The position numbers and the translations under genes were made by a program. Of a DNA stretch of 64,000 nt, positions 629 to 61,060 are shown piece by piece. The notes beneath the pieces were generated by a model, which saw only the letters and a list, made by a program, of their open reading frames with translations, searched no databases and had not been told where the DNA came from. The stretch lies in assembly GCA_041736435.1 (NCBI GenBank), contig JBGSTS010000106.1, positions 13,625 to 77,624 of the forward strand. Reading direction: 5' to 3'. The stretch comes from Desulfobacterales bacterium (GTDB lineage Bacteria; Desulfobacterota; Desulfobacteria; Desulfobacterales; SpSt-501). How positions within the stretch are numbered: the stretch's first letter is position 1; each line of letters starts with the position of its first letter.

Positions 629-629
629 C

Positions 630-7224: not shown

Positions 7225-7369
7225 AGTGCCTATCCAAACATGGTGGATTTCGGTTCAGGCCATGGCCGCAGCGATGTCGCAACCGGAGGCGCAGTTGAGC
7301 ACCGCCATGGATTGCGACGCAAGAGAACGCCGGCATGGGCCGAAAGACGCCGTTTATGGATGGGCACTA
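7225..7369 (+). repeat. Family-A structured repeat, copy A2
   Basis: AGTGCCTATCC...ATGGTGGATTTCGGTTCAGGCCATGGCCGCAGCGATGTCGCAACCGGAGGCG...GGATGGGCACTA. Its last 3 nt are the complement of the phnD stop codon. Confidence 0.85.
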
Positions 7370-8377: not shown

Positions 8378-8457
8378 TTTCGGGCTCCTTCTCGTTTGGG
8401 TGATGGGTCAATTCCGATTCAACCGGCAACGGTAGAACCGATAGGGAAAAAAGAGGG

Positions 8458-9312
8458 TTATGCCCCCGCAGCAATGGCGGCGGGCTGCCTGCAGACGCCA
8501 AGATCCAGCGGAGTGGTCCCGTCGAGATCGATTTCGGCGGAAGGGATATTATAGATGTTGCGCAGCGCCGTGGGGGTGAGATCGGCGCTGGGGCCGTCGT
8601 ATACCACCCGGCCCTCCTTCATGGCGATCGACCGCGGGCAATACTGCAACGCGAACTGGACCTGGTGCAGGCTGACCAGAACGGTGACCCCGTCCTGCTG
8701 GTTCAGGGCCGTGAGGCATTCCATGACGCAGCGGGCAGACTCGGGATCCAGGGAGGCGATGGGCTCGTCGGCCAGAATGATCCGGGCACGCTGCTCCATG
8801 GCGCGGGCGATCGCCGCGCGCTGCTGTTGACCGCCCGAGAGCGTGCTGGCTCTCTGGGCGGCGTATTCCGCGAGGCCGACACGGCCCAGGGCGTTCATGG
8901 CGCGCAGTTTCTCCTCGCGGCTAAACCAGGCCAGCAGGCTGCGCCAGGTGCCCACGCGGGCCAGCATGCCGGCCAGCACATTGGTGATCAGCGGCAGTCG
9001 GCCCACCAGGTTGAACTGCTGGAAAATAAATCCGACCTCGGAGCGGATGCTGCGGATGTCGGGGGATACGACACCGTTTTTTTGGACCTCACGGCCGAAA
9101 ATGCGGATGACCCCCGAGCCGCGATCTCCCGCGAGCAGCCCAGAGACATGCCGCAGCAAGGTCGACTTGCCCGAGCCGGAGGGGCCGATCAGGGCCACCA
9201 TCTCGCCCGGGGTCACGCGAATCCCGACTCGGTTTAGCGCCCGGCGTTTGCCGAAGGTTTTGTTGACGGTTTCAATCTCGATGGCGGCCGGCTGAGAGTC
9301 TGAAATCCGCAT
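8458..9312 (-). CDS. phnC: Phosphonate-type ABC transporter ATP-binding protein (PhnC family)
   Basis: Walker [13 protein letters not shown], signature [14 protein letters not shown], Walker B ILADEP. Confidence 0.85.
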
Positions 9313-9370
9313 GGTCTATATCCTTCCTGAAAGGGTGTCGCCGATGACAGGGTGAGTGTGACCACCCCAA

Positions 9371-9387
9371 ATTAGGTGCATATTAGG
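9371..9387. promoter_or_regulatory. Two ATTAGG hexamers phased 11 bp apart (possible OmpR/PhoB-type direct-repeat site)
   Basis: ATTAGGTGCAT-ATTAGG lies in the divergent phnC / pst intergenic region, about 60-75 nt upstream of the phnC start. Confidence 0.15.
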
Positions 9388-9587
9388 ATTCAGTGTTTTT
9401 TCGGTTGAATTTTATGCGTGAGCGGGAGAGGTTCGACGGGAGATCGTACGATTGCAGTTTTTTAACCCGCGGCTAATTCGCTGGTAACAGAGACGAACTA
9501 TCGTGTGCATCCAATGCCGGTCCGCCGGGGCGGGCCGTTCACTCCAGCCGGGCTGCTTGTGGGCCCACCTGTGGAAGGAAGGACATC

Positions 9588-9809
9588 ATGACCAGCAATC
9601 CCTGCCGTCTCTGCTCCCTGGGAAACTCGGACAAGAACAACTCCACCTGCCTCAAATGCGTCAAGCGGGTCGCCTACGTGGCCACAATCGATCGGGAGCT
9701 GAACTTCGCCGCTTGCCGATCCGAGCTGCACGCCACAGCGCCGCGCTGCCCGATAATTTCCCGTCAGGCCTATTTTCTGTCGGTGAGTCCCGAAATATAC
9801 TATGAATGA
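9588..9809 (+). CDS. Small Cys-rich (CxxC...CxxC zinc-ribbon-like) protein, unknown function
   Basis: 73 aa. GGAAGGAAGGA Shine-Dalgarno-like run just upstream of the ATG. Third positions are strongly GC-rich. Contains CRLC...CLKC. Confidence 0.45.
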   Translation: MTSNPCRLCSLGNSDKNNSTCLKCVKRVAYVATIDRELNFAACRSELHATAPRCPIISRQAYFLSVSPEIYYE

Positions 9810-9964
9810 AATAGACCACCGGTCTGCAGCTATAGGAAATGGACACTGAAAATGGGCGAATGTCCGGGCTAACTCAATCTGAGTCTTATTCTAACGCCGC
9901 GCTAACACTTGCAGCTTAGGCTTCGTTCAATTTTTTCCTCGTTTCGAAAGGAACTTAGGGGACC

Positions 9965-11353
9965 ATGTCGCCTTTGACCCTGTTTACAGTTTTGATTCTG
10001 CTCTCGGTGGCCGGGTATTACTACGGCAAGCGCAGGGCGTTCGCCCTGGACGGGGGGCCGGGCGCGTCCGTCAGGCTCCACTCCCGGCCCACCTACCATG
10101 GGGCGCTGGCAGCCCTGTGGTGCGCAATTCCGGCGGTGTGCGTGTTTGCGGCTTGGCTGCTGTGTGAAACCCAGATCATCACGCATCTGGTCATATCCGG
10201 GCTGCCCGATGCCGTGCGCGGGCTGCCGGCGGACCGGATGAACCTGGTCGTCAATGACATCCGCAATATCGTGGCGGGCAACGTGGTCGCGGCCACGGTT
10301 GACCCGGCCATGCAGGCCGCCGCGGACCACTACCGCAGCCTCAAGGCCACCAGCCATGCCGGCCTGGCGGTCACAACACTGTGCGTGGGGATCGCCGCCC
10401 TGCTGATGGTTCGCAGCCGCATCGTGCCCACCCTGCGGGCCCGCAACCAGGTCGAGTCCATCATCACCGTTCTGTTGGTCGCCTGCTCCACCATTGCCAT
10501 CTTCACCACGCTCGGTATCGTGCTTTCGGTGCTCTACGAGTCGATCCTGTTTTTCCGTGTCGTCCCGGTGACCGAGTTCCTTTTCGGCCTTGACTGGAGC
10601 CCCCAGATGGCCATCCGGGCCGACCAGGTGGGTTCATCCGGGGCCTTCGGTGCCGTGCCTGTTTTTGTGGGAACGGCGCTGATCTCCGCCATTGCCATGG
10701 CCGTCGCGGTGCCCATCGGGCTGATGTCCGCCATCTATCTGTCGGAATATGCCGGCAAGCGCTTGCGGGCGGTCGTCAAACCCCTGATCGAAGTGTTGGC
10801 CGGGATTCCCACCGTGGTGTACGGGTTTTTTGCCGCCTTGACCGTGGCGCCCCACATCCGCGGGATCGGGCAGTGGGTGGGGCTGAATGTCGCATCGGAG
10901 AGCGCCCTGGCAGCCGGCCTGGTCATGGGGGTCATGATCATTCCCTTCGTTTCGTCTCTGTCCGACGATTTCATCAACGCTGTGCCCCAATCCCTGCGGG
11001 ACGGGGCCTACAGCCTGGGGGCCACCCGGTCCGAAACCATTCGCCAGGTGATCCTACCGGCGGCCATTCCGGGGATCATCGGCGGTGTTCTGCTGGCCGT
11101 GTCGCGGGCGATCGGCGAGACCATGATCGTGGTCATGGCGGCCGGGCTCTCGGCCAACCTGACGGTGAATCCGCTTCAGGCTGTCACCACGGTGACCGTG
11201 CAGATCGTCACCTTGCTCGTGGGCGACCAGGAGTTCGACAGTCCCAAAACATTAGCCGCTTTCGCCCTGGGGCTCGTGCTGTTCGTGATCACCCTGTGCC
11301 TCAACGTCATCGCCCTTTACGTGGTGCGCAGATATCGCGAGCAATACGAATAG
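9965..11353 (+). CDS. pstC: Phosphate ABC transporter permease PstC (long form)
   Basis: 462 aa, multi-TM. EAA-loop region (SLRDGAYSLGATRSETIRQVILPAA). Confidence 0.9.
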   Translation: MSPLTLFTVLILLSVAGYYYGKRRAFALDGGPGASVRLHSRPTYHGALAALWCAIPAVCVFAAWLLCETQIITHLVISGLPDAVRGLPADRMNLVVNDIRNIVAGNVVAATVDPAMQAAADHYRSLKATSHAGLAVTTLCVGIAALLMVRSRIVPTLRARNQVESIITVLLVACSTIAIFTTLGIVLSVLYESILFFRVVPVTEFLFGLDWSPQMAIRADQVGSSGAFGAVPVFVGTALISAIAMAVAVPIGLMSAIYLSEYAGKRLRAVVKPLIEVLAGIPTVVYGFFAALTVAPHIRGIGQWVGLNVASESALAAGLVMGVMIIPFVSSLSDDFINAVPQSLRDGAYSLGATRSETIRQVILPAAIPGIIGGVLLAVSRAIGETMIVVMAAGLSANLTVNPLQAVTTVTVQIVTLLVGDQEFDSPKTLAAFALGLVLFVITLCLNVIALYVVRRYREQYE

Positions 11354-11389
11354 CCCCAGCATTCGTTAAAAATTTTCCACCGCTCACAT

Positions 11390-12676
11390 GTGACAACCAT
11401 GAACGACAACGAGACTCGGCTTCGAACCATCGACATCGTCAAGCAGGGGCTGGCCAAGCGCTACCGCGCCGAGCGGCGCTTTCGCCTTTACGGGCTTTCC
11501 GCCATCGTGCTCAGCATCACGGCCCTGGCCCTGCTCTTCGTCAGCATCATCGGCAACGGCTACACGGCCTTCTGGCAGACCCGGATCCGCCTTGACATCA
11601 CCTTCGATGCGGAGGTGCTGCAGCGGGACACCCTGGCAGGCGCCGACTACGCCGCACTGGTTCGGACGGCGCTTCAAAAGATGTTTCCCGAGGTTAAAAG
11701 CCGGCAGGAGCGCCGCCTTCTCAACGGGTTGATCAGTTCGGGCGCGGCCTATGAACTGCGTGATTTGGCTCTTAAAGACCCCGATATCGTGGGGAAAACC
11801 GTGTCGTTGTGGCTGTTTGCCGACGACGACATCGATATGATCGTCAAGGGCCAGTTCAGCCGGGATGTGGCCGAGGAGAACCGGCGGGTCTCCGACCAGC
11901 AGCTCGCCTGGCTCGACCGGTTGAGCGCCGAGGGTCGGGTCGAGGAGCAGTTCAACCTCACCTTCTTCCGGTCGGGGGATTCGCGCGAGCCGGAGCAGGC
12001 GGGGATCTGGGGTGCGGTCATGGGGTCCTTTTTCACCCTGGTCATCACCCTGGTTCTCTCGTTTCCCATCGGCGTGGCGGCCGCCGTCTATCTCGAGGAG
12101 TTTGCCCGCAAGAACCGCTGGACCGACCTGATCGAGGTCAACATCAACAACCTGGCGGCGGTGCCCTCGATCGTCTTCGGCCTCCTGGGGCTTGCCGTCT
12201 TCCTCAATTTCTTCGGCCTGCCGCGATCGGCGCCGCTGGTGGGCGGGCTGGTGCTCACCCTGATGACACTTCCCACCATCATCATCGCCAGCCGCTCGGC
12301 GCTCACATCGGTGCCGCCCTCGATCCGCGAGGCCGCCCTCGGGGTGGGGGCTTCGAAGATGCAGATGGTGGTGCACCATGTGCTGCCCCTAGCGGTGCCG
12401 GGCATGCTGACCGGCACCATCATCGGCATGGCCCGGGCCCTGGGGGAAAGCGCCCCGCTGCTCATGATCGGCATGGTGGCCTTCATCGTGGACATCCCCA
12501 AAGGGGTCTTCGACCCGGCCACCGTGCTTCCGGTCCAGATCTTCCTCTGGGCGGACAGCCCGGAGCGGGCCTTCGTGGAGCGCACCTCGGCCGCCATCAT
12601 CGTGCTGCTGGGCTTTTTGCTGGTGATGAATGCGACGGCCGTCATCCTGCGCAAAAAATTCGAGCGGCGCTGGTAA
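11390..12676 (+). CDS. pstA: Phosphate ABC transporter permease PstA (long form)
   Basis: 428 aa. IREAALGVGASKMQMVVHHVLPLAVPGMLTG is the EAA loop. Start is GTG 11390 or ATG 11399. Confidence 0.9.
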   Translation: MTTMNDNETRLRTIDIVKQGLAKRYRAERRFRLYGLSAIVLSITALALLFVSIIGNGYTAFWQTRIRLDITFDAEVLQRDTLAGADYAALVRTALQKMFPEVKSRQERRLLNGLISSGAAYELRDLALKDPDIVGKTVSLWLFADDDIDMIVKGQFSRDVAEENRRVSDQQLAWLDRLSAEGRVEEQFNLTFFRSGDSREPEQAGIWGAVMGSFFTLVITLVLSFPIGVAAAVYLEEFARKNRWTDLIEVNINNLAAVPSIVFGLLGLAVFLNFFGLPRSAPLVGGLVLTLMTLPTIIIASRSALTSVPPSIREAALGVGASKMQMVVHHVLPLAVPGMLTGTIIGMARALGESAPLLMIGMVAFIVDIPKGVFDPATVLPVQIFLWADSPERAFVERTSAAIIVLLGFLLVMNATAVILRKKFERRW

Positions 12677-12811
12677 TCCATTCCTGAACCGAATTCAAAC
12701 GAGACGCTCATACGCGGCTAATAATACCCCCCTATTTTCCGGATCATCGATCGGAGATATCCGTTTCGAGTTATGTCAATTAAAAACAGCGCAACACCAC
12801 AAGGAGGAAGC

Positions 12812-13861
12812 ATGAAGAAAGCAGTCATCGTCACCCTGGCCGCAGTTTTTGTGGCGGCAACCCTCGGAACCGGCTTCGCCCAGCAGAGGGACTACATCAG
12901 CATCGTCGGGTCGTCGACCGTCTACCCCTTCTCCACTGTCGTGGCGGAAAAGTTCGGCAAGATGGGATCGTTCAAGACCCCCAAAATCGAATCCACCGGC
13001 ACCGGTGGCGGGTTCAAGCTCTTCTGCGGCGGTGTGGGCGTCCAGCACGCCGACGTCTCCAACGCTTCGCGGGCCATTAAAGCCTCGGAGTTCGAGACCT
13101 GCCAAAAGAACGGAGTAACCGACATCGTCGAGGTCAAGATCGGCTACGACGGGATCGCCGTGGCCAATTCCAAGAAAGCCCCGGTCCTGAAGCTCTCCCG
13201 CAAGGACCTCTTCATGGCCCTGGCCAAGGAGGTCCCCGACGCCCAGGGCGGCAAACTGATCCCCAACCCCTACAAAACCTGGAAAGAGGTGAACGCCGCG
13301 CTGCCGGCCGTTAAGATAGAAGTCCTCGGTCCTCCGCCGACCTCCGGCACCCGCGACGCCTTCCTCGAGCTGGCCATGGAAGCGGGGGCCAAGAAGTTCG
13401 AGATGTTGAGCAAGCTCGCCAATGAGGACGGCAAGAAATTTCAGGCGGTGGCCCATACCATCCGCGAGGATGGCGCCTACATCGACGCCGGCGAAAACGA
13501 CAACCTGATCGTGCAGAAGCTCGATGCCAACCCCAATGCGCTCGGGATTTTCGGCTTCAGCTTCCTCGACCAGAACCTGGATAAGCTCCATGGGTCGCTG
13601 ATTGACGGGGCCCAGGCGGAATTCGACAGCATCGCCAGCGGCAAGTACCCCCTGTCCCGGCCGCTTTTCTTCTATGTGAAGAAGGCCCACGTCGGTGTCA
13701 TCCCGGGCATCAAGGAGTTCCTGGCCGAGTTCACCAGCGAAAAAGCCTGGGGCAAGGACGGCTACCTGAGCGAAAAGGGGCTCATTCCCATGCCCGAAGC
13801 CGAACGCAAGCAGGTCGCCGAGAGCGTCAAGGCGCTGAAGCCCGTCACCAGCGCGAAGTAA
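12812..13861 (+). CDS. pstS: Phosphate ABC transporter substrate-binding protein (PstS family)
   Basis: AAGGAGGA just upstream of ATG 12812. Signal peptide MKKAVIVTLAAVFVAATLGTGFA. Contains IVGSSTVYPF and GTGGGFKLFC motifs. Confidence 0.9.
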   Translation: MKKAVIVTLAAVFVAATLGTGFAQQRDYISIVGSSTVYPFSTVVAEKFGKMGSFKTPKIESTGTGGGFKLFCGGVGVQHADVSNASRAIKASEFETCQKNGVTDIVEVKIGYDGIAVANSKKAPVLKLSRKDLFMALAKEVPDAQGGKLIPNPYKTWKEVNAALPAVKIEVLGPPPTSGTRDAFLELAMEAGAKKFEMLSKLANEDGKKFQAVAHTIREDGAYIDAGENDNLIVQKLDANPNALGIFGFSFLDQNLDKLHGSLIDGAQAEFDSIASGKYPLSRPLFFYVKKAHVGVIPGIKEFLAEFTSEKAWGKDGYLSEKGLIPMPEAERKQVAESVKALKPVTSAK

Positions 13862-13882
13862 AGTTGAACGGTTTAAAAAGAT

Positions 13883-13933
13883 CGGACGGGCTGGTCACTG
13901 AGACTGGCCTGTCCGGTTTATCATTTGGTCTTT
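13883..13933 (+). terminator. Hairpin plus U-rich tract between pstS and pstB (possible intra-operon attenuator/terminator)
   Basis: 14-bp stem CGGACGGGCTGGTC / GACTGGCCTGTCCG (three G-U pairs), 5-nt loop, followed by GTTTATCATTTGGTCTTT. Confidence 0.45.
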
Positions 13934-13974
13934 ACTTGAATGGTTGCTTTCATTAAATTCAGGGGTGTTCAGGG

Positions 13975-14877
13975 ATGTTGTCTCTCACACGATTGGGCGA
14001 AGCCGCCCTGGTAGGCACGATGGCTGAAACTGTTGATCAGACGACAAAAGCCGGGAGCACGGGCGCATCCGGCCGGGTCAAACGCGAAAGTCGCGAGACC
14101 GTGGGCCGGCAGTTCGTGGAAAACCCGCGGATGTCCTGCCGCCATGTCGACGTCTTCTACGGCGACAAGCAGGCGCTGCAAAACGTCGCCATCGACATCG
14201 GGCGCAACGAGGTGCTGGCCATGATCGGCCCCTCCGGCTGCGGCAAGTCCACCTTCATCCGCTGCCTGAACCGGATGAACGACACCATCGAGGGCTGCCG
14301 GGTGACCGGCGAGATCCTGCTGGACGGGCTCAATATCCACGACAAGAACGTGGATGTGGTGCCGCTGCGGGCCCAGGTGGGTATGGTGTTCCAGAAGCCG
14401 AACCCCTTCCCTAAGTCGATCTACGAAAACATCGCCTACGGGCCGCGTATCCACGGGCTGGCACGGAACAAGGCCGAACTCGACGACATCGTCGAAAACT
14501 CCCTCAAGAAGGCCGGGCTGTGGGAAGAGGTCAAGGAGCGTCTCTCTGAACCAGGGACCGGGCTCTCCGGCGGCCAGCAGCAGAGGCTGTGCATCGCCCG
14601 CACCATTGCGGTGAACCCGGAGATCATCCTCATGGACGAGCCCTGCTCGGCCCTGGACCCGATCGCCACCTCCGTGATCGAGGACCTGATCGGCGAGCTG
14701 CGCGCCCAGTACTCCATCTGCATCGTCACCCACTCCATGCAGCAGGCCGCGCGGGTCTCCCAGCGCACGGCCTACTTCCACCTGGGCGACCTGATCGAGG
14801 TCGGCTCCACCGAGCGCATCTTCACCAACCCGCGGCATGAGCTGACGCAGGACTATATCACCGGCCGCTTCGGCTGA
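13975..14877 (+). CDS. pstB: Phosphate import ATP-binding protein PstB
   Basis: [16 protein letters not shown]...[26 protein letters not shown]. The true start may be an internal Met (14020 or 14131). Confidence 0.9.
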
Positions 14878-14889
14878 CGCGGCACGGAT

Positions 14890-15030
14890 TGAATCGCAAG
14901 GCCAATGTCGGCGTTGCGCTTTCCCGCCAAGGCGGGACGGTCACTGCGGTCCCGCCTTGGCGGGATACGCCTCGTTCCGCGGGATTCGTGCGCCGTGCCT
15001 GCCCCGCTTCAGCGGGGATATTGGGCTTGG
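14890..15030. repeat. Family-B palindromic intergenic repeat, copy B1
   Basis: GCGTTGCGCTTTCCCGCCAAGGCGGGA...GGTCCCGCCTTGGCGGGATACGCCTCG...GCCCCGCTTCAGCGGGG. Shares the GTTGCGCTT and GGTCCCGCCwwGGCGGGATACGCCTCG blocks with 32270-32385. Confidence 0.7.
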
Positions 15031-15097
15031 GGTGCAGCCGGCGCTCCACGGTCGGTACGTCTGCTTGTGAGGAATTCCGCCGGAAGGGGGTCGCTCA

Positions 15098-15245
15098 TTC
15101 GTGGCCGGTCAGAAATGGTGGATTACGGCCCCGGCCAAGGCCGTAGCGATGTCGCCACCGCAGGCGGTGTGAGGCACCGTCGAGGATGGCGACGAGCGAA
15201 AACGCAGGCCCGGGCCGCAAGGCGCCGTTTCTGGATGCGCACGAA
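15098..15245 (+). repeat. Family-A structured repeat, copy A3
   Basis: TTCGTGGCCGGTC AGAAATGGTGGATTACGGCCCCGGCCAAGGCCGTAGCGATGTCGCCACC...GATGGCGAC...GGATGCGCACGAA. Ends 1 nt before the phoR stop codon. Confidence 0.85.
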
Positions 15246-15246
15246 A

Positions 15247-17034
15247 TCAGGCGGGGTTGGGGCCCCGGGGCAGGTGGATGGTGAAGGTGCTGCCCTCGTT
15301 CAGGGCGCTGGCGACGTCCACGTGCCCGCCGTGGGCCTGGGAGATGTGCTTGACGATGGCAAGACCCAGCCCGGTGCCTCCCATGGCGCGGCTACGGGCC
15401 TTGTCCACGCGGTAGAACCGCTCGAAAAGCCGCGGCAGGTGTTTGCGCTCGATTCCGATCCCGTGGTCCTGAACGCTGATTTGAATTTCGTCTGTGGTCT
15501 GCCGCGCAGCGAGCCGGATTGAGGTTTCGGTGTCGCTGTACTTGATGGCGTTGTCCAGTAGGTTCACCACGGCCTGTTCGATCAGAACCGGGTCCACGAC
15601 CGCCGCCAGGTTTTCATCACCGGCCAGCTCGATGCGGATGCGCTTTTCATCGGCCCCCGGGCGGCAGACCTGAAGCGCGTTCTGGAAGATCTCCCGCAGC
15701 CGGGTTTTTTCCTGCTTCAGTTCGCGGCGCTCCCCCTGGTCCTCGATCCGCGAGAGCATCAACAGATCCTCCACCACGGTCGTCAGCCGGTCGACATGCT
15801 TGGCCACGATCCCTAAGAACCGTTTGGCCTCCGCCGGGTTTTCGACGACCCCTTGGTTTAAAGTCTCCACAAAGCCCTTGATGGCGGTCAGGGGGGTCTT
15901 GATCTCATGGGAGACGTTGGCCACAAAATCGCGGCGCATGTTTTCCAGCCGGCGCAGCTGAGTGACGTCGTTGAACACGATCAGGGTGCCGATCAGCTCC
16001 TGGCCGGCATCCAGAAGCGGGGCGCTGCGGATGTTGAGGACGCGCTCGCCGCTCTGGTAGACGACGATGTCGTCCTCCATGGGCGCCCGGCTGCGCAGCG
16101 CCTGGATGATGAACTGCTGCATGGCCATGTTACGGATGGCCTCGGGGATGCTGCGTCCCCGGATCTTTTCGGGCTCCGTTTCGAACCATTTGGCCGCCGC
16201 CGGGTTCAGGCTGATCAGCCGCTCCTCGCGGTCCACCGCGATGACCCCCTCCAGCATGCTCGAGAGCACGGCCTCGAGCTGGTTGCGCTGGCTGATGACA
16301 GTCTGCATGCGCCCCTCGAGCTGCGCTGCCATGCGGTTGAGAGACTCGGCCAGCCCGGCCAACTCGCCGGAATCGGGGATGGGCAGCCGGTGGGCGAGCT
16401 CGCCCTGGGCGAAGCGGGCGGCGCCGCGCTGCAGCTCACCGAGCTTGCGGGCGTATTGACGCGAAATCAGAAGTGTCATCCCGAGAGCCAGCAGAGCGAT
16501 GGCGGCGCCGATCAGAAAAACCTCAAGGCGGATCCGGGAGAGCTCCGTTTGCACCCGGGAGAGCGGGATGGCGGCGCGGATGACGGCCAGCGGTTGCATT
16601 CCCAGCGGGACCGAGACCGCCTGATAGATGATTTTCTGCCGAAGCGTTTCACTGAATCGGGTGGTATGCGCCGACCCAAGGCGGAGGGCCGCGGCCACTT
16701 CCGGCCGGCCCGCATGGTTGTCCATGTTCCGGGGGGTGTCCCGCGAATCGCCCACAACCAGCCCGTCGGGGAGGATGACGGTAAAGCGGGTCTCCGAGTT
16801 TCGGCCGGCGTTTTTGCAGATCTCGTCGATGATGTCGGTATCGGGCGGGCTCAGGTGCTTTTCGATTTGGGACTCGAGCAGGCGGGCCCGCTGGGTCAGG
16901 TCGGTGGCGATCTGGTCGACCAGGAACTGCTCCAGCGAGCGCATGGAGTACCAGCCGGCCGCGAGGAGCGCTCCGAGCGTGATCAGAACGTAGGAGATGA
17001 ACAGCCGCCACACCATTGCCCGGCGTCGGTTCAT
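15247..17034 (-). CDS. phoR: Phosphate-regulon-type sensor histidine kinase (PhoR-like; TM-HAMP-PAS-HisKA-HATPase)
   Basis: FVANVSHEIKTPLTAI (H-box), DNAIKY (N-box), GGTGLGLAIVK (G-box). Overlaps phoB by 4 nt. Confidence 0.85.
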   Translation of the reverse strand: MNRRRAMVWRLFISYVLITLGALLAAGWYSMRSLEQFLVDQIATDLTQRARLLESQIEKHLSPPDTDIIDEICKNAGRNSETRFTVILPDGLVVGDSRDTPRNMDNHAGRPEVAAALRLGSAHTTRFSETLRQKIIYQAVSVPLGMQPLAVIRAAIPLSRVQTELSRIRLEVFLIGAAIALLALGMTLLISRQYARKLGELQRGAARFAQGELAHRLPIPDSGELAGLAESLNRMAAQLEGRMQTVISQRNQLEAVLSSMLEGVIAVDREERLISLNPAAAKWFETEPEKIRGRSIPEAIRNMAMQQFIIQALRSRAPMEDDIVVYQSGERVLNIRSAPLLDAGQELIGTLIVFNDVTQLRRLENMRRDFVANVSHEIKTPLTAIKGFVETLNQGVVENPAEAKRFLGIVAKHVDRLTTVVEDLLMLSRIEDQGERRELKQEKTRLREIFQNALQVCRPGADEKRIRIELAGDENLAAVVDPVLIEQAVVNLLDNAIKYSDTETSIRLAARQTTDEIQISVQDHGIGIERKHLPRLFERFYRVDKARSRAMGGTGLGLAIVKHISQAHGGHVDVASALNEGSTFTIHLPRGPNPA

Positions 17035-17723
17035 GGCTTTTCCTTGAAGCGGTATCCGACGCCGCGCACGGTTTCGATGTAGCTGCCGTGGGCGCCGAGC
17101 TTCTTCCGCAGCCCGACCACCTGGACGTCCACGCTGCGGTCGGTGACGGGGTAGTCCCCGCCGCGCACCGCGTCCACGATGTGGCCCCGGGTGAACACCC
17201 AGCCCGGGCGCCGCGCCAGCACGTGCAGCAGCTGGAATTCCGTGTAGGTCAGCTCCACCGGCTTGCCGCCCGCCAGCACGGTGCGCCGGCCGGGGTGGAT
17301 TTCAAGATCGTGGATGGTAATGAAATCGGATTCGCCGACCGGCTCCCGGGAGCGGCGCCGCAGGACGGTTTTGACCCGGGCGATGAGCACGCGTGGGCTG
17401 AACGGCTTGGTGATGTAGTCGTCGGCCCCGATTTCGAGCCCGGCAACCACATCCGCGTCTTCACCCTTGGCGGTCAGCATGATGAGCGGCAGGGTTTTGG
17501 TCTTGGCATCGGCTTTGAGTGCCTTGGCCACCTCGAGACCGTCGAGGCCTGGCAGCATGAGATCCAGGACCACCAGGTCGAGAGCTTCCCGTTTTGCTTT
17601 CTTCAGGGCATCTTCACCGCTGGCTGAGACAACCACCTCATAGCCTTCGCGGGCCAGATGATAGCGCACGAGCTCTAAAATATCCTCTTCGTCGTCGACG
17701 ACCAGGATGCGTTGTTTTGCCAT
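17031..17723 (-). CDS. phoB: OmpR-family response regulator (PhoB-like)
   Basis: Receiver ILVVDDEEDI...DLVVLDLMLPGLDG, and a winged-helix C-terminus (TYTEFQLLHVLARRPGWVFTRGHI...VDVQVVGLRKKL...IETVRGVGYRF). Confidence 0.88.
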   Translation of the reverse strand: MAKQRILVVDDEEDILELVRYHLAREGYEVVVSASGEDALKKAKREALDLVVLDLMLPGLDGLEVAKALKADAKTKTLPLIMLTAKGEDADVVAGLEIGADDYITKPFSPRVLIARVKTVLRRRSREPVGESDFITIHDLEIHPGRRTVLAGGKPVELTYTEFQLLHVLARRPGWVFTRGHIVDAVRGGDYPVTDRSVDVQVVGLRKKLGAHGSYIETVRGVGYRFKEKP

Positions 17724-17831
17724 GGGCAGACACCTCGCGAGAACCTAATTTGCAACATAACGAGTTTGTTCAACACTTTCAAATTATTTATGTTGCGTTG
17801 TTTTTGCGCTAGACCTGCGTTAGTTTTCAGT

Positions 17832-17977
17832 TAGTGCCCACCCATAAACGGCGCCTTTCGGCCCATGCCGGCCTTCTCGCTCTTCCCACTCCTCGGCGTA
17901 GACGCACTACGCCTCCGGTTGCGAAATTGCTGCGGCCTTGGCTTGGACCGAAATCCACCACTTCTGGATGAACACGG
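17832..17977 (-). repeat. Family-A structured repeat, copy A4 (inverted orientation)
   Basis: Reverse complement reads CCGTGTTCATCC AGAAGTGGTGGATTTCGGTCCAAGCCAAGGCCGCAGCAATTTCGCAACCGGAGGCGTAG...CTACGCCGAGG...GGGTGGGCACTA. Confidence 0.85.
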
Positions 17978-18006
17978 ATAGCTCTGATTGGAAAGTGAAT
18001 GGGCCG

Positions 18007-19095
18007 ATGAATCTTTTGCTCGACATGCTGCGCGAATCCTGGCATCTGCTGCTAGATGCCTCGGTGTACATCCTGTTCGGCCTGCTGGTGAGCGGGCTGT
18101 TCCGCGTGTTTCTCAACCCCGATACGATCGGCCGCCACCTCGGGACCGGGCGTTTTGCCTCGGTGTTCAAAGCGGCTCTGATAGGCGTGCCGATCCCGCT
18201 TTGAAGCTGCGGGGTGCTGACCGCGGCCGTGTCGCTGCGGAAACAGGGTGCCACCAAGGGCGCTACAACGGCCTTCATGATCTCCACGCCGGAGTCCGGG
18301 GTGGACTCCATTGCGGTGACCTATGCCCTGCTGGACCCCGTCATGACCGTGGCTCGGCCGCTGGCCGCGTTTGTCACGGCGTTCGCGGCCGGCATCGCAG
18401 AGAACCTCTTCAGCTACCGCGGCGGGGCCGTCGCCATTGTCGCCCATCACCCCTGCCCGGTGGACGGCTGCTGCGACGGCCGCACGTGCGACCCTGAAAC
18501 CCACCGGCATCACCATGGTTTTCTGGAAAAACTCGGCAGCGGGGTGCGCTACGCGGTGTCGGACCTGTGGGCGGACATCGCGGCCTGGTTTTTCGTCGGG
18601 CTCCTGCTGGCCGGAGCCATAACGGCTCTCATGCCCGAGGATGCCGTCACGCGCTATGTGGGATCCGGGCTCCCGGCCATGCTGATCATGCTGGTGGTAG
18701 GCATTCCGCTTTACATCTGTGCCACCGCCTCCACTCCAATCGCCGCAGCGCTGATTCTCAAAGGCCTGAGCCCCGGCGCCGCCCTCGTTTTTCTCCTGGC
18801 CGGCCCGGCCACCAACATGGCCACCCTGACGGTCCTGGTCAAAGTCCTTGGCAAGCGCGCGACAGGGATCTACCTTGCGGCGATCGCCATGTTCGCCGTG
18901 CTCTCCGGTTTGGCTGTGGACCAGGTCTATGCTCTGCTGGGGATTTCAGCCAAAGCCGCGGCCGGCCAAGCGGCCGAGATCCTGCCGGAGGCCGTGCGGT
19001 GGGGGGCGGCGGCGCTGGTGCTGCTCATCTCGATCAAGCCGGTGATCGCCGGGGTCCGAGGCTGGTTCAGCCGGTCCGCGGGTGTGCCGTCGTGA
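18007..19095 (+). CDS. COG0701/DUF318-type permease (SO_0444-like putative metal efflux permease) with in-frame UGA in the CSC motif; candidate selenoprotein
   Basis: Track ORFs 17938..18204 and 18214..19095 are in the same frame, separated only by TGA 18202-18204. Joined they read ...LIGVPIPL-U-SCGVLTAAVSLRKQGATKGATTAFMISTPESGVDSIAVTYALL...IPLYICATASTPIAAALILKG. A His/Cys-rich loop (HHPCPVDGCCDGRTCDPETHRHHH) is present. Start taken at ATG 18007, outside repeat A4. Confidence 0.7.
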
Positions 19096-19221: not shown

Positions 19222-19442
19222 ATGAAAGCTAAGGAATTCGATAATAACTTCGACTCCGGCAAAAGCATCGTGCGCTATCTCGACCTGAAACATGCGGTTC
19301 GATCCGGCCAAGAGCAAAGAAGGGCCAATGTGGATTTCCCGTCCTGGATGATCAGCCGGCTGGATAACGAGGCCAAACGCTTAGGAGTTCCGCGTCAGTC
19401 ACTGATCAAAATAGGATCGCCGAGAAACTGCAGGGAATTTGA
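19222..19442 (+). pseudogene. BrnA/CopG-type antitoxin remnant, frameshifted, with no partner toxin
   Basis: MKAKEFDNNFDSGKSI...RRANVDFPSWMISRLDNEAKRLGVPRQSLIKI, then the frame is lost. One base later the sequence reads (R)IAEKLQGI* (TGA 19440-19442), the usual family C-terminus. Consistent with a 1-nt deletion near 19411-19413. Confidence 0.5.
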
Positions 19443-19516
19443 CCTGCGGCAAGACAAACAAGATCAATCGGCCATAAACGCTGATCGTCCCCACCTCCCC
19501 CGCCACATCCCGTCCC

Positions 19517-19559
19517 TAAAAATGAAAGCTCCGACCGCCGCGCTGGCGAGGGCCGGAGC
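19517..19559 (-). terminator. Rho-independent terminator downstream of dctP
   Basis: Minus strand: GCUCCGGCC-14 nt loop-GGUCGGAGC (9 bp, one G-U), followed by UUUCAUUUUU. Confidence 0.5.
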
Positions 19560-19582
19560 GTGGTAGCATCGATTGATGCGGA

Positions 19583-22640: not shown

Positions 22641-22745
22641 GCCCGTTTCGACTTTCTGTTTGCGCTTGAAGAAATTTGATTCTTGTGCGTGAATAACCGA
22701 AAAATGTCAAGCGTGCGATTTCCGATCTTAAACGCGGGTGACCTC

Positions 22746-24221
22746 ATGACGATGCCGTTGCTCAAGTGCCGTGCCTGCCGCCGGGCCTACCCCGTCCGGC
22801 CAGGCCTCTTCGGCTGCCCCCATGCCCGCGCCGGCGAGGAGCATATTCTGGAGCGTGAACTCAACGCTGCCGGAAACCTCGGGATTAAGGTGCGCTCGGT
22901 CTGGTCGAGCGGCTCGCGGAGCACCTTCAAGGTGTTCGCCGATCTTCTCAGCGCCGGCCGGCTGCTCGGTCCGGCCCGGTATTCGAAGCTGCTGGGCCGG
23001 CTGACGGAGGGCCTCGATCGGCTGGAGGGCCGCAGCTTCGTGGCCACCCCGTTGGTTGCGGCTTCGGTCCTCTCCGATGCGATCGGTCGCAGCGGGCCCT
23101 TGTGGATTAAGAACGATACGGGCAACATCGCCGGGTCCCACAAGGGCCGTCACCTCATGGCCACGCTGCTATATTTGGAAGCCTTGCGGGAATTGGACGG
23201 GGGCGGCCCGAAAAACGTCCTCGCCATTTACAGCTGCGGCAATGCGGCTCTGGCGGCGTCGGCTGTGGCCCGGGCCGGCGGCTATGAGCTGCACGCCTTT
23301 GTGCCCGAGGAGGTTGATCCCGTTGTGGCTGGAAGGCTGGCGGACCGGGGTGCGTTTGTCGAGAAGATCGCCCGGTCGGCCACCGGCGGCGGCGACCCCT
23401 GCTACCTGGCTTTCCGGGAGGCCCTCGCGCATTCCGGCTGGCTGCCGTTTGCCTGCGCCGGAAACGACAACTGGTCGAACATCGAAGGGGGCTCCACCCT
23501 GGGCTGGGAGGCGGTGATGCAGCTGGCGGACCGGGCGGAGAGCCTGGACTGCGTGGTCCTTCAGGTCGGGGGCGGCGCATTGGCCCGGGCAATCTCCCAG
23601 GCCTTTGACGAGGCCCGGGCGCTCGGAGTCATCGAGCGGGTCCCGCGCATCCACGTCTGCCAGCCGGAGGGGGGCTTTCCCTTAGTGCGAGCCTACTACC
23701 TGGTGATGCAGGCGATCGCCCGCCGCAACGGGCTGCCCTTCGACCTTCACTACGATGCAAAAAGCCCGGCTGCGGTCCGACTCGAGGCGCTCAAGCAGTT
23801 CGCGTGGACCCGAAGTGACCAGATCCAGGCCCTGGCGGAGTTCGTCCAGCGGCATTTCGACACACCTGCGGTCCGGTCGGTCCTGGACGAGGTCCCCATC
23901 CACAGCGGCCGCTTCATGTGGCCCTGGGACGGTCCCGCGCCCCACAGCCTGGCCCACGGGATTCTCGACGACCTCACCTACGACTGGTATCCCCTGCTGC
24001 GGGCCGTGTTGCGAACCGGCGGGCGGGCCGAGGTGCTGCACGAAGAGAGCATCCAGCGCGCCCACAGTCTGGCCCATCAACACACGGTGATCCGGGTCTG
24101 CCCGACCGGGGCCGCGGGACTGGCCGGCTTGATTCAGCTCACGGAGGTCGGCGTCATCAGGCGGTCCGAATCGGCCGGGTTGTTCTTCACGGGGTTTGAC
24201 CGCAGCCGGCCCGAATGCTAA
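22746..24221 (+). CDS. Threonine-synthase-like fold-type-II PLP enzyme with N-terminal Cys-rich (zinc-ribbon-like) segment
   Basis: CRACRR...GCPH N-terminus. NDTGNIAGSHKGRH (PLP-Lys context similar to SFKDR). YSCGNAALAASAVA. VLQVGGGALARA. Confidence 0.7.
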   Translation: MTMPLLKCRACRRAYPVRPGLFGCPHARAGEEHILERELNAAGNLGIKVRSVWSSGSRSTFKVFADLLSAGRLLGPARYSKLLGRLTEGLDRLEGRSFVATPLVAASVLSDAIGRSGPLWIKNDTGNIAGSHKGRHLMATLLYLEALRELDGGGPKNVLAIYSCGNAALAASAVARAGGYELHAFVPEEVDPVVAGRLADRGAFVEKIARSATGGGDPCYLAFREALAHSGWLPFACAGNDNWSNIEGGSTLGWEAVMQLADRAESLDCVVLQVGGGALARAISQAFDEARALGVIERVPRIHVCQPEGGFPLVRAYYLVMQAIARRNGLPFDLHYDAKSPAAVRLEALKQFAWTRSDQIQALAEFVQRHFDTPAVRSVLDEVPIHSGRFMWPWDGPAPHSLAHGILDDLTYDWYPLLRAVLRTGGRAEVLHEESIQRAHSLAHQHTVIRVCPTGAAGLAGLIQLTEVGVIRRSESAGLFFTGFDRSRPEC

Positions 24222-24251: not shown

Positions 24252-25673
24252 ATGATAGACGGTATGACTGAAAAGCGACTCATCACCGGCCCGACCTTTG
24301 CCGAGATGCTCAACCCCGCCAAAATCCGATCGGACATACGGGAGCAAGCCTTGCGCACGCGGGCGGTCGACCCGCTCGACCCGATCAATCTCTACAACAT
24401 CTCCTGGAAGGACGCTGAAAACCGCATTTACCACGAAGTCCTGCCACGGCAGTTGACCGGGGTGGAGACCCCCATCGTGGTCCTCTACGGCAAGGAGTTC
24501 CCGACCGGAAGCCACAAGGTGGGCGCGACCTACTCGGTTTTGATCGAGAAGGCCATCAGCGGCGAGGTGGACCCGGCGCGGCACACCATCGTCTGGCCGT
24601 CGACCGGCAATTACGGCATCGGGGGCGCCTGGGTGGGATGTCGCATGCAGTTTGACTCGGTGGTGATCCTGCCCGAGGAGATGAGCCGGGAGCGCTTCGA
24701 GATCGTGCGGGGCTACGGGGCGCGCCTCGAGCTCACCCCGGGCTGTGAGAGCAACGTCAAGGAGATCTACGACAAGTGCCACGAACTGAAGTGCGCCGAC
24801 CCCGAACGGGTTCGAATCATGAATCAGTTCGAGGAGTTCGCCAACTACCGGTTCCACTATTACGTAACCGGCAACACCGTTATCGAACTGGCCCGCCAGC
24901 TGGAATCCCAGGGGGTCGGCCGGGGCGTGGTCTCGGCCTTCGTGTCGGCCATGGGCTCCTCCGGCACCATTGCCGCCGGGGACCGTCTTAAGCAGCAGTG
25001 GCCCGGCCGGCACCTGATCGTGGGACTGGAGCCCATCCAATGCCCGACCCTTTTCTGGAACGGCTACGGCGGCCACGACATCCAGGGCATCGGCGACAAG
25101 CACGTCACCTGGATCCACAACGTCATGAACATGGACGCCGTGATGTGCATCGACGACATCGAGTCCAAAATGGGGCTGCAGCTTCTGACCGAGGCACCCG
25201 GCTGGGAGCTGCTGAGCGGCAAGTACGGGGTTCCCGTGAGCCAGGTGAAACGGCTCTCCGAAATATTCGGCATTTCAGGGGTCTGCAACGTCCTGGGGGC
25301 CATCAAGACGGCACGGTACTACGGCATGGGCAAGGAGGATCTCATCGTCACCGTCTGCACCGATGCCATCGACCGCTACCCGTCGGTCATGCACTCGCTC
25401 ACCGAGTGCTTCGGGCCGATGGACGTCACCGCCGCCGAGGTGCGGCTGGTCAGCATCTTTCACCGCCAAAAGCTGGATTGGATTGCCGAGGGCACGCGCC
25501 AGAACCGCAACCAGTGGCACAATCTCAAGTATTTCACCTGGGTGGAACAGCAGGGCAAGCGCATCGAGGAGCTGAACGCCCAGCGCAGCCCGACCTACTG
25601 GGACGAAAAGCAGGCAAAAGTGCAGGAAGTGGATCGGTTGATCGAGGCGTACCGGGCCCAGAAAGCCGGTTGA
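24252..25673 (+). CDS. Cysteine-synthase/Trp-synthase-beta-like PLP-dependent enzyme (473 aa)
   Basis: FPTGSHKVGATY (PLP Lys), WPSTGNYGIGGAWVG, AMGSSGTIAAG. Confidence 0.7.
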   Translation: MIDGMTEKRLITGPTFAEMLNPAKIRSDIREQALRTRAVDPLDPINLYNISWKDAENRIYHEVLPRQLTGVETPIVVLYGKEFPTGSHKVGATYSVLIEKAISGEVDPARHTIVWPSTGNYGIGGAWVGCRMQFDSVVILPEEMSRERFEIVRGYGARLELTPGCESNVKEIYDKCHELKCADPERVRIMNQFEEFANYRFHYYVTGNTVIELARQLESQGVGRGVVSAFVSAMGSSGTIAAGDRLKQQWPGRHLIVGLEPIQCPTLFWNGYGGHDIQGIGDKHVTWIHNVMNMDAVMCIDDIESKMGLQLLTEAPGWELLSGKYGVPVSQVKRLSEIFGISGVCNVLGAIKTARYYGMGKEDLIVTVCTDAIDRYPSVMHSLTECFGPMDVTAAEVRLVSIFHRQKLDWIAEGTRQNRNQWHNLKYFTWVEQQGKRIEELNAQRSPTYWDEKQAKVQEVDRLIEAYRAQKAG

Positions 25674-25802: not shown

Positions 25803-26987
25803 ATGCAAGCGGCTGCCCGAATTTTGGAGCTCTCCCGGCGCTATCGCGACGACACTGCCGCAAACCTGTCCGACCTGGTCAAAATTCGGTCTCTGAGCTG
25901 CCGGGAAAAGGATGTCGCGCACAAGCTGGCCGATCAAATGAGACTTGCCCGATTCGACGAGGTCACCATCGACGGGCTCGGCAACGTGATCGGTCGCATC
26001 GGCCGCGGCCGGCGCGTCCTTGCCTTCGACGGCCACATCGACACCGTGGACGTCGGCAATCCCGCCAACTGGACGGATGACCCCTTCGGCGGCGCGATCC
26101 GCGACGGGTTCGTCCACGGGCGCGGTGCGGCCGACCAGAAGGGCGGCCCGGCGGCGATGGTGACCGCCGGCCGGATCCTCAAGGAGATGGGTTTCGACCG
26201 GGACCTGACGCTTTATTTCGTGGGCAGCGTTATGGAGGAGGACTGCGACGGGCTGTGCTGGAAATACATCATCGAAGAGGACGGCATTCGGCCGGAAGCG
26301 GTGGTCATCACCGAGCCGACGGACGGGGGCCTTTACCGCGGACAGCGCGGCCGCATGGAGATCGAGGTCGAATTCAAGGGGGTCTCAGCCCATGGGTCGG
26401 CGCCGGAGCGCGGCAAGAACGCTATTTACGCGGCCTCCCGGGCCTGCCTGGCCGCCCAGCAGCTGAACGAGCGGTTTCCCGCCGATGAGTTTCTCGGCAA
26501 GGGCTCCATCGCTTTGAGCCAGTTTGTCTCCGGCAGCCCCTCCCTGTGCGCCGTGGCCGACTATGCCCGGATCCACCTGGACCGGCGGCTGACCTGGGGC
26601 GAGACCAAGGAGTCGGCCGTGGCGGAGATCGAAGCCATCGTGCACGGCGAGGAGGCCAAGGTCTTCGTGCTCGACTACGAAGAAGCTGCTTACACCGGCA
26701 AGCGCTACGGTATGGAAAAGTACTACCCGACCTGGAAGTGGTCCGAGGACCATCCCGCGGTCCAAGCCGGCGCCCTGGCGTATGCGGCCCTTTTCGGGAA
26801 GCCGCCGCGGATCGGCAAGTGGACCTTCTCGACCAACGCCGTCACCATATCGGGGGTCTACGGCATTCCGGCCATAGGCTTCGGCCCCGGCGCCGAAGCC
26901 ATGGCGCATGCCCCCAACGAGAAAACGCCCGTCGAGGACCTGGTCAACGCGGCGGCGTTCTACGCCATGGTTGCCATCATTATCTGA
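25803..26987 (+). CDS. ygeY: YgeY-family M20 peptidase/deacylase (selenium-metabolism-linked hydrolase family)
   Basis: Long collinear similarity to E. coli YgeY as I recall it: EEDCDGLCWKYIIEEDGIRPE..ITEPTD...YRGQRGRMEIEV...GVSAHGSAPERG.NAI...RRLTWGET...KWTFSTNAV...GFGPG....AHAPNEKT. Confidence 0.9.
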   Translation: MQAAARILELSRRYRDDTAANLSDLVKIRSLSCREKDVAHKLADQMRLARFDEVTIDGLGNVIGRIGRGRRVLAFDGHIDTVDVGNPANWTDDPFGGAIRDGFVHGRGAADQKGGPAAMVTAGRILKEMGFDRDLTLYFVGSVMEEDCDGLCWKYIIEEDGIRPEAVVITEPTDGGLYRGQRGRMEIEVEFKGVSAHGSAPERGKNAIYAASRACLAAQQLNERFPADEFLGKGSIALSQFVSGSPSLCAVADYARIHLDRRLTWGETKESAVAEIEAIVHGEEAKVFVLDYEEAAYTGKRYGMEKYYPTWKWSEDHPAVQAGALAYAALFGKPPRIGKWTFSTNAVTISGVYGIPAIGFGPGAEAMAHAPNEKTPVEDLVNAAAFYAMVAIII

Positions 26988-26998: not shown

Positions 26999-28189
26999 AT
27001 GACCTCCTTCACCAAATTGATGAAAGATATCGATGCCCTGCCGGGCAAACTCCACCACACCGACTTTCTGCTGACCTGGGATAAGTCCGTCGATGAACTC
27101 CGGAAGATCCTCGCCGTGGCCGAGGCGCTGCGCCGGCTGCGGCAGGACAACCGCTCCACGCGCTGCTTCGACTCTGGCCTGGCGGTGAGCATCTTCCGCG
27201 ACCAGTCGACCCGCACGCGATTTTCCTTCTTCTCCGCCGCCAACCTGCTGGGGCTGGGGGTCCAGGACCTGGACGAGACCCGCGCGCAGATCGCCCACGG
27301 GGAGACCGTGCGCGAGACCGCCAACATGATTTCGTTTTTCACCGAGGTCATCGGCATCCGCGACGATATTTTTCTCGGCGCAGGCCACGCCTATATGAAG
27401 CAGGTGGCCGCCGCCGTGGAGGACGGCTTCAATTCCGGGGTACTGGAGCAGCGGCCCTATCTGGTCAACCTCCAGAGCGACATCGACCACCCCACCCAGA
27501 GCATGGCCGACCTGATGCAGTTGGCCCATCATTTCGGCTCCGTGGAAAACCTGCGGGGCAAGAAGATCGCCATGACCTGGGCCTATTCGCCCAGCTACGG
27601 CAAACCGCTCTCCGTGCCACAGGGGGTGATCGGCCTGATGACCCGCTTCGGGATGGAGGTGGTGCTGGCGCACCCCGAGGGCTACCGCCTGATTCCCGAT
27701 GTGGTTTCCAAGGCCGGGGTGTTTGCCAAGGAAAACGGCGGCAGTTTCCGGGTGGTCAACTCGATGGACGAGGCCTTCGCCGGAGCCGACGTGGTCTACC
27801 CCAAAAGTTGGGCGCCCTACCACGTGATGGAAAAGCGCACCGAGCTGCTGCGCGACAACGACACCGCCGGGCTGAAGGAACTAGAAAAGTCCTGCCTGGC
27901 CCAGAACGCTCACTTCAAGGCCTGGGAGTGCAACGAGGCCAAAATGAAACTGACCGGCGACGGCCGGGCGCTTTACATGCACTGCCTGCCGGCGGACATT
28001 TCCGGGGTCTCCTGCGCCGCCGGCGAAGTTGGGGCGAGCGTCTTCGAGCGCTACCGGATCCCTACCTACATCCAGGCTGGGTTCAAGCCCTACATCATCG
28101 CCGCCGTCATGCTGACCAGCCGCTTCGAGGACCCCGTCAAGGTTTTGAGGGCGTTAAAGCGCCGGGGGCGACCCCGGGTGGGATTCTGA
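26999..28189 (+). CDS. ygeW: Knotted carbamoyltransferase YgeW
   Basis: Near-collinear with E. coli YgeW as I recall it: DFLLTW..., SIFRDQSTRTRFSF, QIAHGETVRETANMISFF, NLQSDIDHPTQSMADL, KIAMTWAYSPSYGKPLSVPQGVIGLMTRFGM, YMHCLPADISGVSC. Start at ATG 26999, not the track's 26546. Confidence 0.93.
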   Translation: MTSFTKLMKDIDALPGKLHHTDFLLTWDKSVDELRKILAVAEALRRLRQDNRSTRCFDSGLAVSIFRDQSTRTRFSFFSAANLLGLGVQDLDETRAQIAHGETVRETANMISFFTEVIGIRDDIFLGAGHAYMKQVAAAVEDGFNSGVLEQRPYLVNLQSDIDHPTQSMADLMQLAHHFGSVENLRGKKIAMTWAYSPSYGKPLSVPQGVIGLMTRFGMEVVLAHPEGYRLIPDVVSKAGVFAKENGGSFRVVNSMDEAFAGADVVYPKSWAPYHVMEKRTELLRDNDTAGLKELEKSCLAQNAHFKAWECNEAKMKLTGDGRALYMHCLPADISGVSCAAGEVGASVFERYRIPTYIQAGFKPYIIAAVMLTSRFEDPVKVLRALKRRGRPRVGF

Positions 28190-58473: not shown

Positions 58474-58695
58474 TCCTAAACCTCCCTAAAAAAATGACCT
58501 CTACCGAGAGCACAACGCTCAAAGCAGAGGTCATCATCCCACTCTTTAAGGTGTATGGGCGGTTGCGGCTGACCTCATAGCCCGCAGAATCAATCATACC
58601 CTTTCCGAGCCCTCACCGAGTGTCAAGACATTCAGATTTCGGCGCTCGACCGACCTAAGGCTTTCGGCTCAAATAAAATGTTATTAAAATCCGTG

Positions 58696-60942: not shown

Positions 60943-61060
60943 GCTGCCGGATTTTCGGCAGACCAGCGAGGGGATGGAGTCCCCCCTACAACCGCCCATC
61001 TTGGGCTGATGACTCCTGCCGTGCCCCCATCCCGCGGCGGAGCCGTCTGCCCTCGACGAT

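Follow-up and report, generated by a model that had tools for sequence, protein, structure and literature searches.

We analyzed a 64,000-nucleotide stretch of contig JBGSTS010000106.1 (GenBank assembly GCA_041736435.1) from a Desulfobacterales bacterium, hereafter the window, and focused on a membrane transporter gene that is interrupted by an in-frame UGA codon, very probably a codon for selenocysteine (Sec). The gene lies on the forward strand at positions 18007..19095, is complete and encodes 362 residues with a predicted Sec at residue 66. It was assigned to the SO_0444 family, within the ArsP_1 superfamily, on the basis of hidden Markov model (HMM) matches and of the starts of its homologs. 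Two open reading frames (ORFs), 17938..18204 and 18214..19095, share one frame, and the sole stop separating them is the forward-strand TGA at 18202..18204. A preliminary description of this DNA had reported that layout, and our re-reading agreed with it. Read through, the product is ...KAALIGVPIPL*SCGVLTAAVSLRKQGA..., where the segment before the Sec residue (U) is FKAALIGVPIPL and the one after it SCGVLTAAVSLRKQGA. Counted from ATG 18007 (MNLLLD...), the frame has 362 codons and the TGA is codon 66, at the first position of a U-S-C motif (TGA AGC TGC, 18202-18210). ATG 18007 is the probable start codon, as full-length homologs begin there too; those with Cys at 62-69% identity share the start Met of the transporter. 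The terminator of the gene itself is a TGA (19093-19095). TGA is thus an ordinary stop codon in this host, and the internal TGA needs a special explanation.

With U replaced by C, the read-through product matches the NCBIfam model NF033936 (SO_0444 family Cu/Zn efflux transporter) with 409.2 bits (cutoff 300). The match spans profile positions 1-349 of 351 and is obtained only for the joined ORFs, which bears out two earlier proposals, namely that read-through yields a single COG0701/DUF318 permease of about 360 amino acids and that both halves are needed. The match to Pfam PF03773 (ArsP_1, 136 bits) indicates superfamily membership only, and the score against the SaoE model NF040736 (181.8 bits, cutoff 325) shows that the transporter is not a SaoE member. 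Searching a protein collection returned the 293-residue C-terminal fragment of the transporter itself, three similarly truncated relatives with 85-92% identity, and thousands of full-length homologs with identity up to 69%. The UGA had been proposed to replace the first Cys of a C-S-C motif. In agreement with this, all 60 aligned full-length homologs have Cys in the column that faces the TGA, inside an invariant P-L-C-S-C-G. Two further conserved segments had been placed downstream of the UGA, and we located both by conservation across 61 sequences. The first is a Cys/His-rich loop between the protein halves (residues 147-170, HHPCPVDGCCDGRTCDPETHRHHH, 18445..18516 on the forward strand), in which C150, D153, C156, C161, H166, H169 and H170 are invariant and C155 is nearly so; it is probably a metal-gathering segment. 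The second is the hallmark Y-I-C-A-T-A-S-T-P (residues 236-244, 18712..18738, forward strand), the pseudo-symmetric counterpart of P-L-U-S-C-G, with Y236, C238, A239, T240, A241, S242, T243 and P244 all invariant. These data support one gene for a COG0701/ArsP_1-type permease of the SO_0444 family with a Sec-UGA at the first Cys of C-S-C.

The same codon recurs in relatives. A scan of species-representative genomes gave 80 loci, mostly in metagenome-assembled genomes annotated as Desulfobacterales or Desulfobacteraceae, the nearest with 83% identity to the transporter. The codon at the Sec column was counted as TGA or TGY in 76 related loci with a readable motif, made up of 74 genome loci together with two metagenome contigs and the window. 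It is TGA in 55 of them and TGC or TGT in 21, so that, in this sample of the closest relatives (mostly Desulfobacterales), the Sec form is the commoner one. Two metagenome contigs that encode truncated relatives with 91% and 85% identity have TGA at the same codon, and 55-70 upstream codons are conserved in frame. A relaxed nucleotide motif scan of the species-representative genomes raised the number of TGA-form loci to at least 119, including the cultured carriers Desulforhopalus singaporensis DSM 12130, Desulfopila aestuarii DSM 18488 and Desulfosediminicola flagellatus IMCC35005. Further UGA-containing members, which the preliminary description had suggested looking for, are therefore numerous. 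In a neighbor-joining tree, the window falls into one large Sec clade, a separate Sec group is formed by Desulfobulbales, and one Cys-form locus (L025) is nested within the large Sec clade. The recurrence of TGA at one column is far beyond chance, and its alternation with TGY is the classic signature of a Sec/Cys pair. Neither a pseudogene nor a sequencing error can explain a TGA shared by 55 of 76 loci and, in the wider scan, by at least 119.

Downstream of the UGA we compared two stem-loops as candidates for the selenocysteine insertion sequence (SECIS); in the numbering used here, nucleotide 1 is the U of the UGA. The first, hairpin B, was identified comparatively and is the predicted SECIS upper stem-loop (CCGCGGC-CGUGUC-GCUGCGG, nucleotides 20-39, 18221..18240 on the forward strand). 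It has 7 bp, a 6-nucleotide loop CGUGUC with G-U at loop positions 2-3, and a folding energy of -12.8 kcal/mol. Its stem starts 16 and its loop 23 nucleotides past the UGA, and it lies within the codons for T-A-A-V-S-L-R. An extended lower stem is possible at about 18211-18252, as longer folds add CUG/CAG at nucleotides 16-18 and 43-45. At least six of the seven pairs form in 52 of 55 Sec loci and in 2 of 21 Cys loci (Fisher P-value = 7.6e-13, not corrected for phylogeny). The codons GCC GTG TCG CTG are fixed in 52 of the 55 Sec loci and vary freely in Cys loci, and within the Sec loci the codons immediately preceding them (Ser, Gly, Val, Leu) each use four to six synonymous codons. Compensatory changes are also found. 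Pair 20/39 switches between C-G and G-C, pair 21/38 occurs as C-G, U-G and U-A, and all four sequences with A38 have U21. The observed level of covariation was reached in none of 500 shuffles, and slid controls pair far worse. Taken together, these comparisons single out hairpin B as the functional, Sec-specific SECIS candidate.

The published rules for bacterial SECIS (bSECIS) elements ask for a loop of 3-9 nucleotides, a stem of 4-16 bp, a G within the first two loop positions, a distance of 16-37 nucleotides from UGA to loop and a minimum free energy of at most -7.5 kcal/mol (PMC13188914). Hairpin B passes all the rules quoted there. It resembles the fdhF-type SECIS of Escherichia coli and the bSECIS consensus in that its stem-loop is intra-coding, follows closely 3' of the UGA, carries G-U in a small apical loop and satisfies the spacing and energy rules. 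It differs from the E. coli fdhF element in primary sequence, and its stem begins 16 nucleotides after the UGA. The minimal fdhF SECIS element begins 11 nucleotides past the UGA.

The distribution of this hairpin has two particular features. Two Cys-form loci, L025 and L042, keep the Sec-type hairpin GCNGCYGTGTCGCTGCG, L042 differing at the third base of the second Ala codon. Since L025 is nested in the Sec clade, its hairpin looks like a 'fossil SECIS' that has outlasted a recent Sec-to-Cys reversion; L042 groups with the Cys forms in the neighbor-joining tree despite its Sec-type hairpin. Moreover, Desulfobulbales loci (L075, L079, L080 and L165-L229) have the same Sec-UGA followed by another conserved hairpin, GUGCUGCC-GGC-GGCAGCAU, at nucleotides 13-31. 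This type is represented by 63 distinct sequences with wobble and compensatory changes, and the type of the window by 80. Sister orders thus appear to use two non-homologous classes of SECIS for one Sec position, and the different Desulfobulbales hairpin implies that the SECIS was re-invented or shifted within the SO_0444 family.

The second stem-loop, hairpin A (GCUGCGG-GGUGCUGA-CCGCGGC, nucleotides 5-26, 18206..18227, forward strand), is the one that had previously been described as SECIS-like. It does exist at 18206-18227, where it forms a perfect 7-bp stem of -14.0 kcal/mol with a loop that starts with GGU, and both properties would suit a SECIS. It is mutually exclusive with hairpin B, as the arm CCGCGGC (18221-18227) is common to both. 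The proposed SECIS role did not hold up, as hairpin A is not Sec-specific and its spacing fails. Its loop opens 8 nucleotides after the UGA against the 16-37 of the consensus model, and its mean pairing is 5.6 of 7 in Sec loci and 4.8 of 7 in Cys loci. The codons TGC GGN ... CCN GCN account for this pairing, and no pair shows a double-sided (compensatory) change. The two outer pairs require an AGY codon for Ser and are unpaired in most family members. In addition, with the UGA in the A site, hairpin A would be inside the ribosome. We therefore regard it as very unlikely that hairpin A, with its loop GGUGCUGA, is the functional SECIS.

The serine codon next to the UGA deserves a separate remark. 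The middle Ser of U-S-C is encoded by AGY in the window (18205-18207) and in loci L001, L002, L004-L006, L015, L016 and L071, which form a subclade with it, and by TCN in the remaining family members. The switch from TCN to AGY needs two base changes and lengthens hairpin A from 5 to 7 bp.

Given the conserved UGA column and the hairpin that accompanies it, we consider it highly likely that the gene encodes a genuine Sec-containing SO_0444-family transporter, and we infer that Sec is actually inserted at residue 66. The rest of the window gives an indirect hint of selenium use by the host. The gene at 25803-26987 (forward strand) encodes a YgeY family 'selenium metabolism-linked hydrolase' (519 bits, cutoff 321) and is followed at about 27000-28189 on the same strand by a gene for a YgeW knotted carbamoyltransferase (671 bits); the genes of two pyridoxal phosphate (PLP) enzymes, 22683-24221 and 24252-25673, precede them. 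We take YgeY and YgeW to be marker genes of selenium-dependent molybdenum hydroxylase neighborhoods. At a broader scale, few phyla are as rich in selenoproteins as that of the host, Thermodesulfobacteriota. At least 57 selenoprotein genes have been reported for the Olavius Delta 1 symbiont, which has the same Sec motif, and the main text of the 2007 paper on the Olavius Delta 1 selenoproteome makes no mention of a permease, transporter, membrane protein or COG0701.

Several observations weigh against this reading. None of selA, selB, selC and selD lies in the 64-kb window, where ARAGORN detected no tRNA-Sec and NCBIfam scans of about 50 ORFs detected no SelA, SelB or SelD. In the literature we found no experimental report of selenium in any SO_0444-family member. 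Single-sequence folding of this GC-rich coding region performed no better than shuffles (z = 0.17) and is uninformative, so the support for hairpin B is purely comparative; and since the loci are phylogenetically related, the contrast of 52/55 with 2/21 overstates their independence. Hairpin A is slightly more stable than hairpin B in the window (-14.0 and -12.8 kcal/mol, respectively). Finally, the assignment of copper and zinc as substrates leans on one distant homolog.

Some of these observations would also fit a UGA that is read through without Sec-tRNA(Sec), by a near-cognate Trp or Cys tRNA or by a suppressor tRNA, with the hairpin as a generic stimulator of read-through. This explanation draws on the lack of direct selenium evidence for the SO_0444 family and on the Sec machinery not seen in the window. 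Yet the UGA always stands for a metal-ligand Cys, as in classic Sec/Cys pairs, and hairpin B fits the bacterial SECIS rules in loop size, loop G and spacing. The host clade is rich in selenoproteins, the Olavius Delta 1 symbiont with its many selenoprotein genes shares the motif, and NCBI curators have validated the SO_0444 family as a selenoprotein family. Read-through by a tRNA other than Sec-tRNA(Sec) is therefore quite improbable. That the TGA is a genuine stop, leaving a pseudogene or a 65-88-residue N-terminal peptide plus a 293-residue protein from GTG 18214, agrees with public gene calls that include the 293-residue fragment (P0001, P0002, P0026) and again with the Sec machinery not found in the window, but it is extremely improbable, as the same-codon TGA persists across the related loci with both flanks conserved at the protein level, which a pseudogene would not do, a genuine stop would split the invariant C-S-C motif, GTG 18214 falls within conserved sequence, and the nucleotides 3' of the TGA are under a constraint seen only in TGA-bearing genes.

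If the gene is decoded as a selenoprotein, codon 66 would follow the standard bacterial route, in which SelB-GTP-Sec-tRNA(Sec) attaches to the SECIS loop and supplies Sec to a UGA in the ribosomal A site. Hairpin B (18221-18240), 16 nucleotides past the UGA, would be the element that brings SelB-GTP-Sec-tRNA(Sec) to a ribosome paused on this codon. With the ribosome on the UGA, hairpin A would presumably lie melted in the mRNA channel, so that the shared arm CCGCGGC is freed and hairpin B can form at the channel entrance. The product would be a polytopic inner-membrane metal-efflux permease, efflux being the presumed direction of transport. In this protein, the selenolate of Sec66 together with Cys68, and possibly Cys238 of YICATAS, would ligate a soft metal during translocation, at a site formed by helix breaks in the membrane core. 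The Cys/His-rich loop at residues 147-170 would probably hand metal ions to the Sec66/Cys68 site.

To place these putative metal-binding residues in a structure, we used an AlphaFold model of P0004, a Cys homolog with 69% identity (pLDDT 81.8, pTM 0.76), as a stand-in for the Sec protein. In this model, C-S-C lies at the break between two short helices (51-60 and 67-79), YICATAS lies at the equivalent break (221-235 and 239-251), and the region of the Cys/His-rich loop is non-helical. The modeled position of both motifs at helix breaks is typical of membrane-core substrate sites. A Foldseek search of the P0004 model against the Protein Data Bank (PDB) returned no significant hit (best, the TRAP transporter SiaQM, E = 0.1, TM 0.37), and a sequence-profile search of the PDB found no solved relative. 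As for the substrate, copper and zinc would be expected by analogy with the mutant phenotype of Shewanella oneidensis SO_0444, and the ArsR/SmtB regulator found beside the gene in relatives suggests soft metal(loid) substrates in general.

The genes around the transporter set the window apart from most of its relatives. Upstream, an intergenic region of 283 bp (17724..18006) separates the transporter gene from a divergent gene for a PhoB-like response regulator. In 50 of the 76 loci, a gene of about 124 residues for an ArsR/SmtB regulator (NF033788, 93 bits, with an EMCVCDL motif) lies just upstream of the transporter on the same strand. No arsR homolog is present anywhere in the 64-kb window. 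In the window, L002 and L004, the distance from the divergent response-regulator gene to the transporter is about 280 bp and holds no ArsR/SmtB gene; in L005, L006 and L071 the same gap is about 770-1100 bp and arsR is present. By this comparison, the ArsR/SmtB gene has been lost by deletion in the lineage of the window, L002 and L004. One could combine this loss with the two mutually exclusive hairpins and propose that synthesis of the full-length transporter is gated after transcription, with the supply of selenium or the availability of SelB acting on a structural switch in place of metal sensing at the level of transcription. We give this idea very little credence. The AGY serine codon that strengthens hairpin A is also present in the arsR-bearing L005, L006, L071, L015 and L016, which weakens the case for a switch.

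The adjacency of response regulator and transporter is kept in 18 Sec-form loci. A role of the divergent two-component pair as a metal sensor was considered and rejected, since its proteins resemble PhoR/PnpS-PhoB and its genes lie beside pstSCAB together with phnCD. The pair belongs to a phosphate block at 7367-17723, directly upstream of the transporter, which comprises phnD, phnC, pstC, pstA, a pstS-like gene, pstB and the PhoR/PnpS-PhoB pair. On the 3' side, the transporter is followed by a gene for a BrnA antitoxin and by a TRAP transporter. No ars genes flank the transporter in the window, and no SAO genes lie near it.

The BrnA-family antitoxin gene, directly 3' of the transporter at 19222-19566 on the forward strand, scores 96 bits (cutoff 60). 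Its ORF has 114 residues against the 70 of the model, and there is no room upstream for a gene of the BrnT toxin. In 20 loci, including L015 and all of the Sec form, a gene for FdhD, the formate dehydrogenase accessory sulfurtransferase, is found just downstream on the minus strand. This adjacency may reflect synteny within the clade and not a functional link.

A scan of the window for further genes split by TGA gave no credible second selenoprotein, although Sec codons close to protein termini would escape it. Rfam at gathering thresholds reported only a transfer-messenger RNA (tmRNA) and two fluoride riboswitches in the window and nothing at the transporter locus. The two riboswitches lie 2.4 kb apart, at 58518-58591 on the minus strand and at 60961-61025 on the forward strand. 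One, of 55.9 bits, precedes a gene for a CPA2-family cation/proton antiporter (61125-62345), and the other, of 37.2 bits, precedes a 520-residue ORF for a dynamin-like GTPase (56911-58473, minus strand). A dynamin-like GTPase would seem an unusual target of fluoride riboswitch control. Near the start of the window, a tyrosine recombinase/integrase gene (591-1793, forward strand) abuts the tmRNA gene (1836-2192, minus strand), which is followed by smpB (2365-2823, minus strand). This arrangement (591-2823) is typical of an island integrated at ssrA.

Sec in members of the SO_0444 family has been described before. Selenoproteins of this family with a USC motif, exemplified by WP_014809615.1 of Desulfomonile tiedjei, make it one of two transporter families validated for the selenoprotein reference data of NCBI PGAP (Haft 2022, bioRxiv 10.1101/2022.07.06.499078). 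A 2026 review lists NF033936 with its UxC motif as 'GenBank annotated' (PMC13188914). The gene of the window shares with the D. tiedjei-type selenoproteins the family, the replacement of C-S-C by U-S-C and the phylum Thermodesulfobacteriota. Nothing essential distinguishes it from the known SO_0444 selenoproteins; its host is uncultured and Desulfobacteraceae-like, the closest genome being 83% identical, and it lacks the upstream ArsR/SmtB gene that most relatives have. No Desulfomonile record is among 83 exact matches to the Desulfobacterales-type SECIS GCCGUGUCGCUG, although the D. tiedjei gene itself was not examined. The preliminary description had called Sec in a membrane transporter unusual. 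Its rarity stands, but the novelty that this implied does not, as the USC motif of the SO_0444 family is already documented.

The other relatives place the transporter functionally. The founding member, S. oneidensis SO_0444, belongs to the same equivalog family and has a proposed function in copper/zinc efflux; its mutant does not grow when stressed with ZnSO4 or CuCl2, a defect that complementation reversed. It has Cys instead of Sec and shares its operon with a ZntR-like MerR regulator. The Desulfobacterota relatives have an ArsR/SmtB regulator instead of the ZntR-like one, and the gene of the window has no adjacent regulator. ArsP of Campylobacter jejuni, a thiol-dependent efflux permease for trivalent organoarsenicals and thus for a soft metalloid substrate, belongs like the protein of the window to the Pfam ArsP_1 superfamily. 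In contrast, ArsP is encoded in ars operons, and its exported substrates are methylarsenite and roxarsone(III) rather than copper and zinc; the gene of the window has no ars neighbors. Sec forms have not been reported for ArsP, unlike for the SO_0444 family. The closest described sister family is SaoE (NF040736), whose CSC tripeptide aligns with the USC of the protein described here and which never contains Sec (Haft, bioRxiv 10.1101/2022.07.06.499078).

The gene is therefore a further member of an already described selenoprotein family that is routinely annotated in sulfate-reducing bacteria. We found no published description of the SECIS position, of the two SECIS classes or of the loss of ArsR, and these are modest refinements. 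Annotations should treat the two ORFs as a single selenoprotein gene and place the SECIS at 18221-18240 instead of at the hairpin adjacent to the UGA. Selenocysteine is nearly always a redox catalyst. A Sec that binds metal along the permeation path of a transporter, as proposed here, would be rare and mechanistically interesting.

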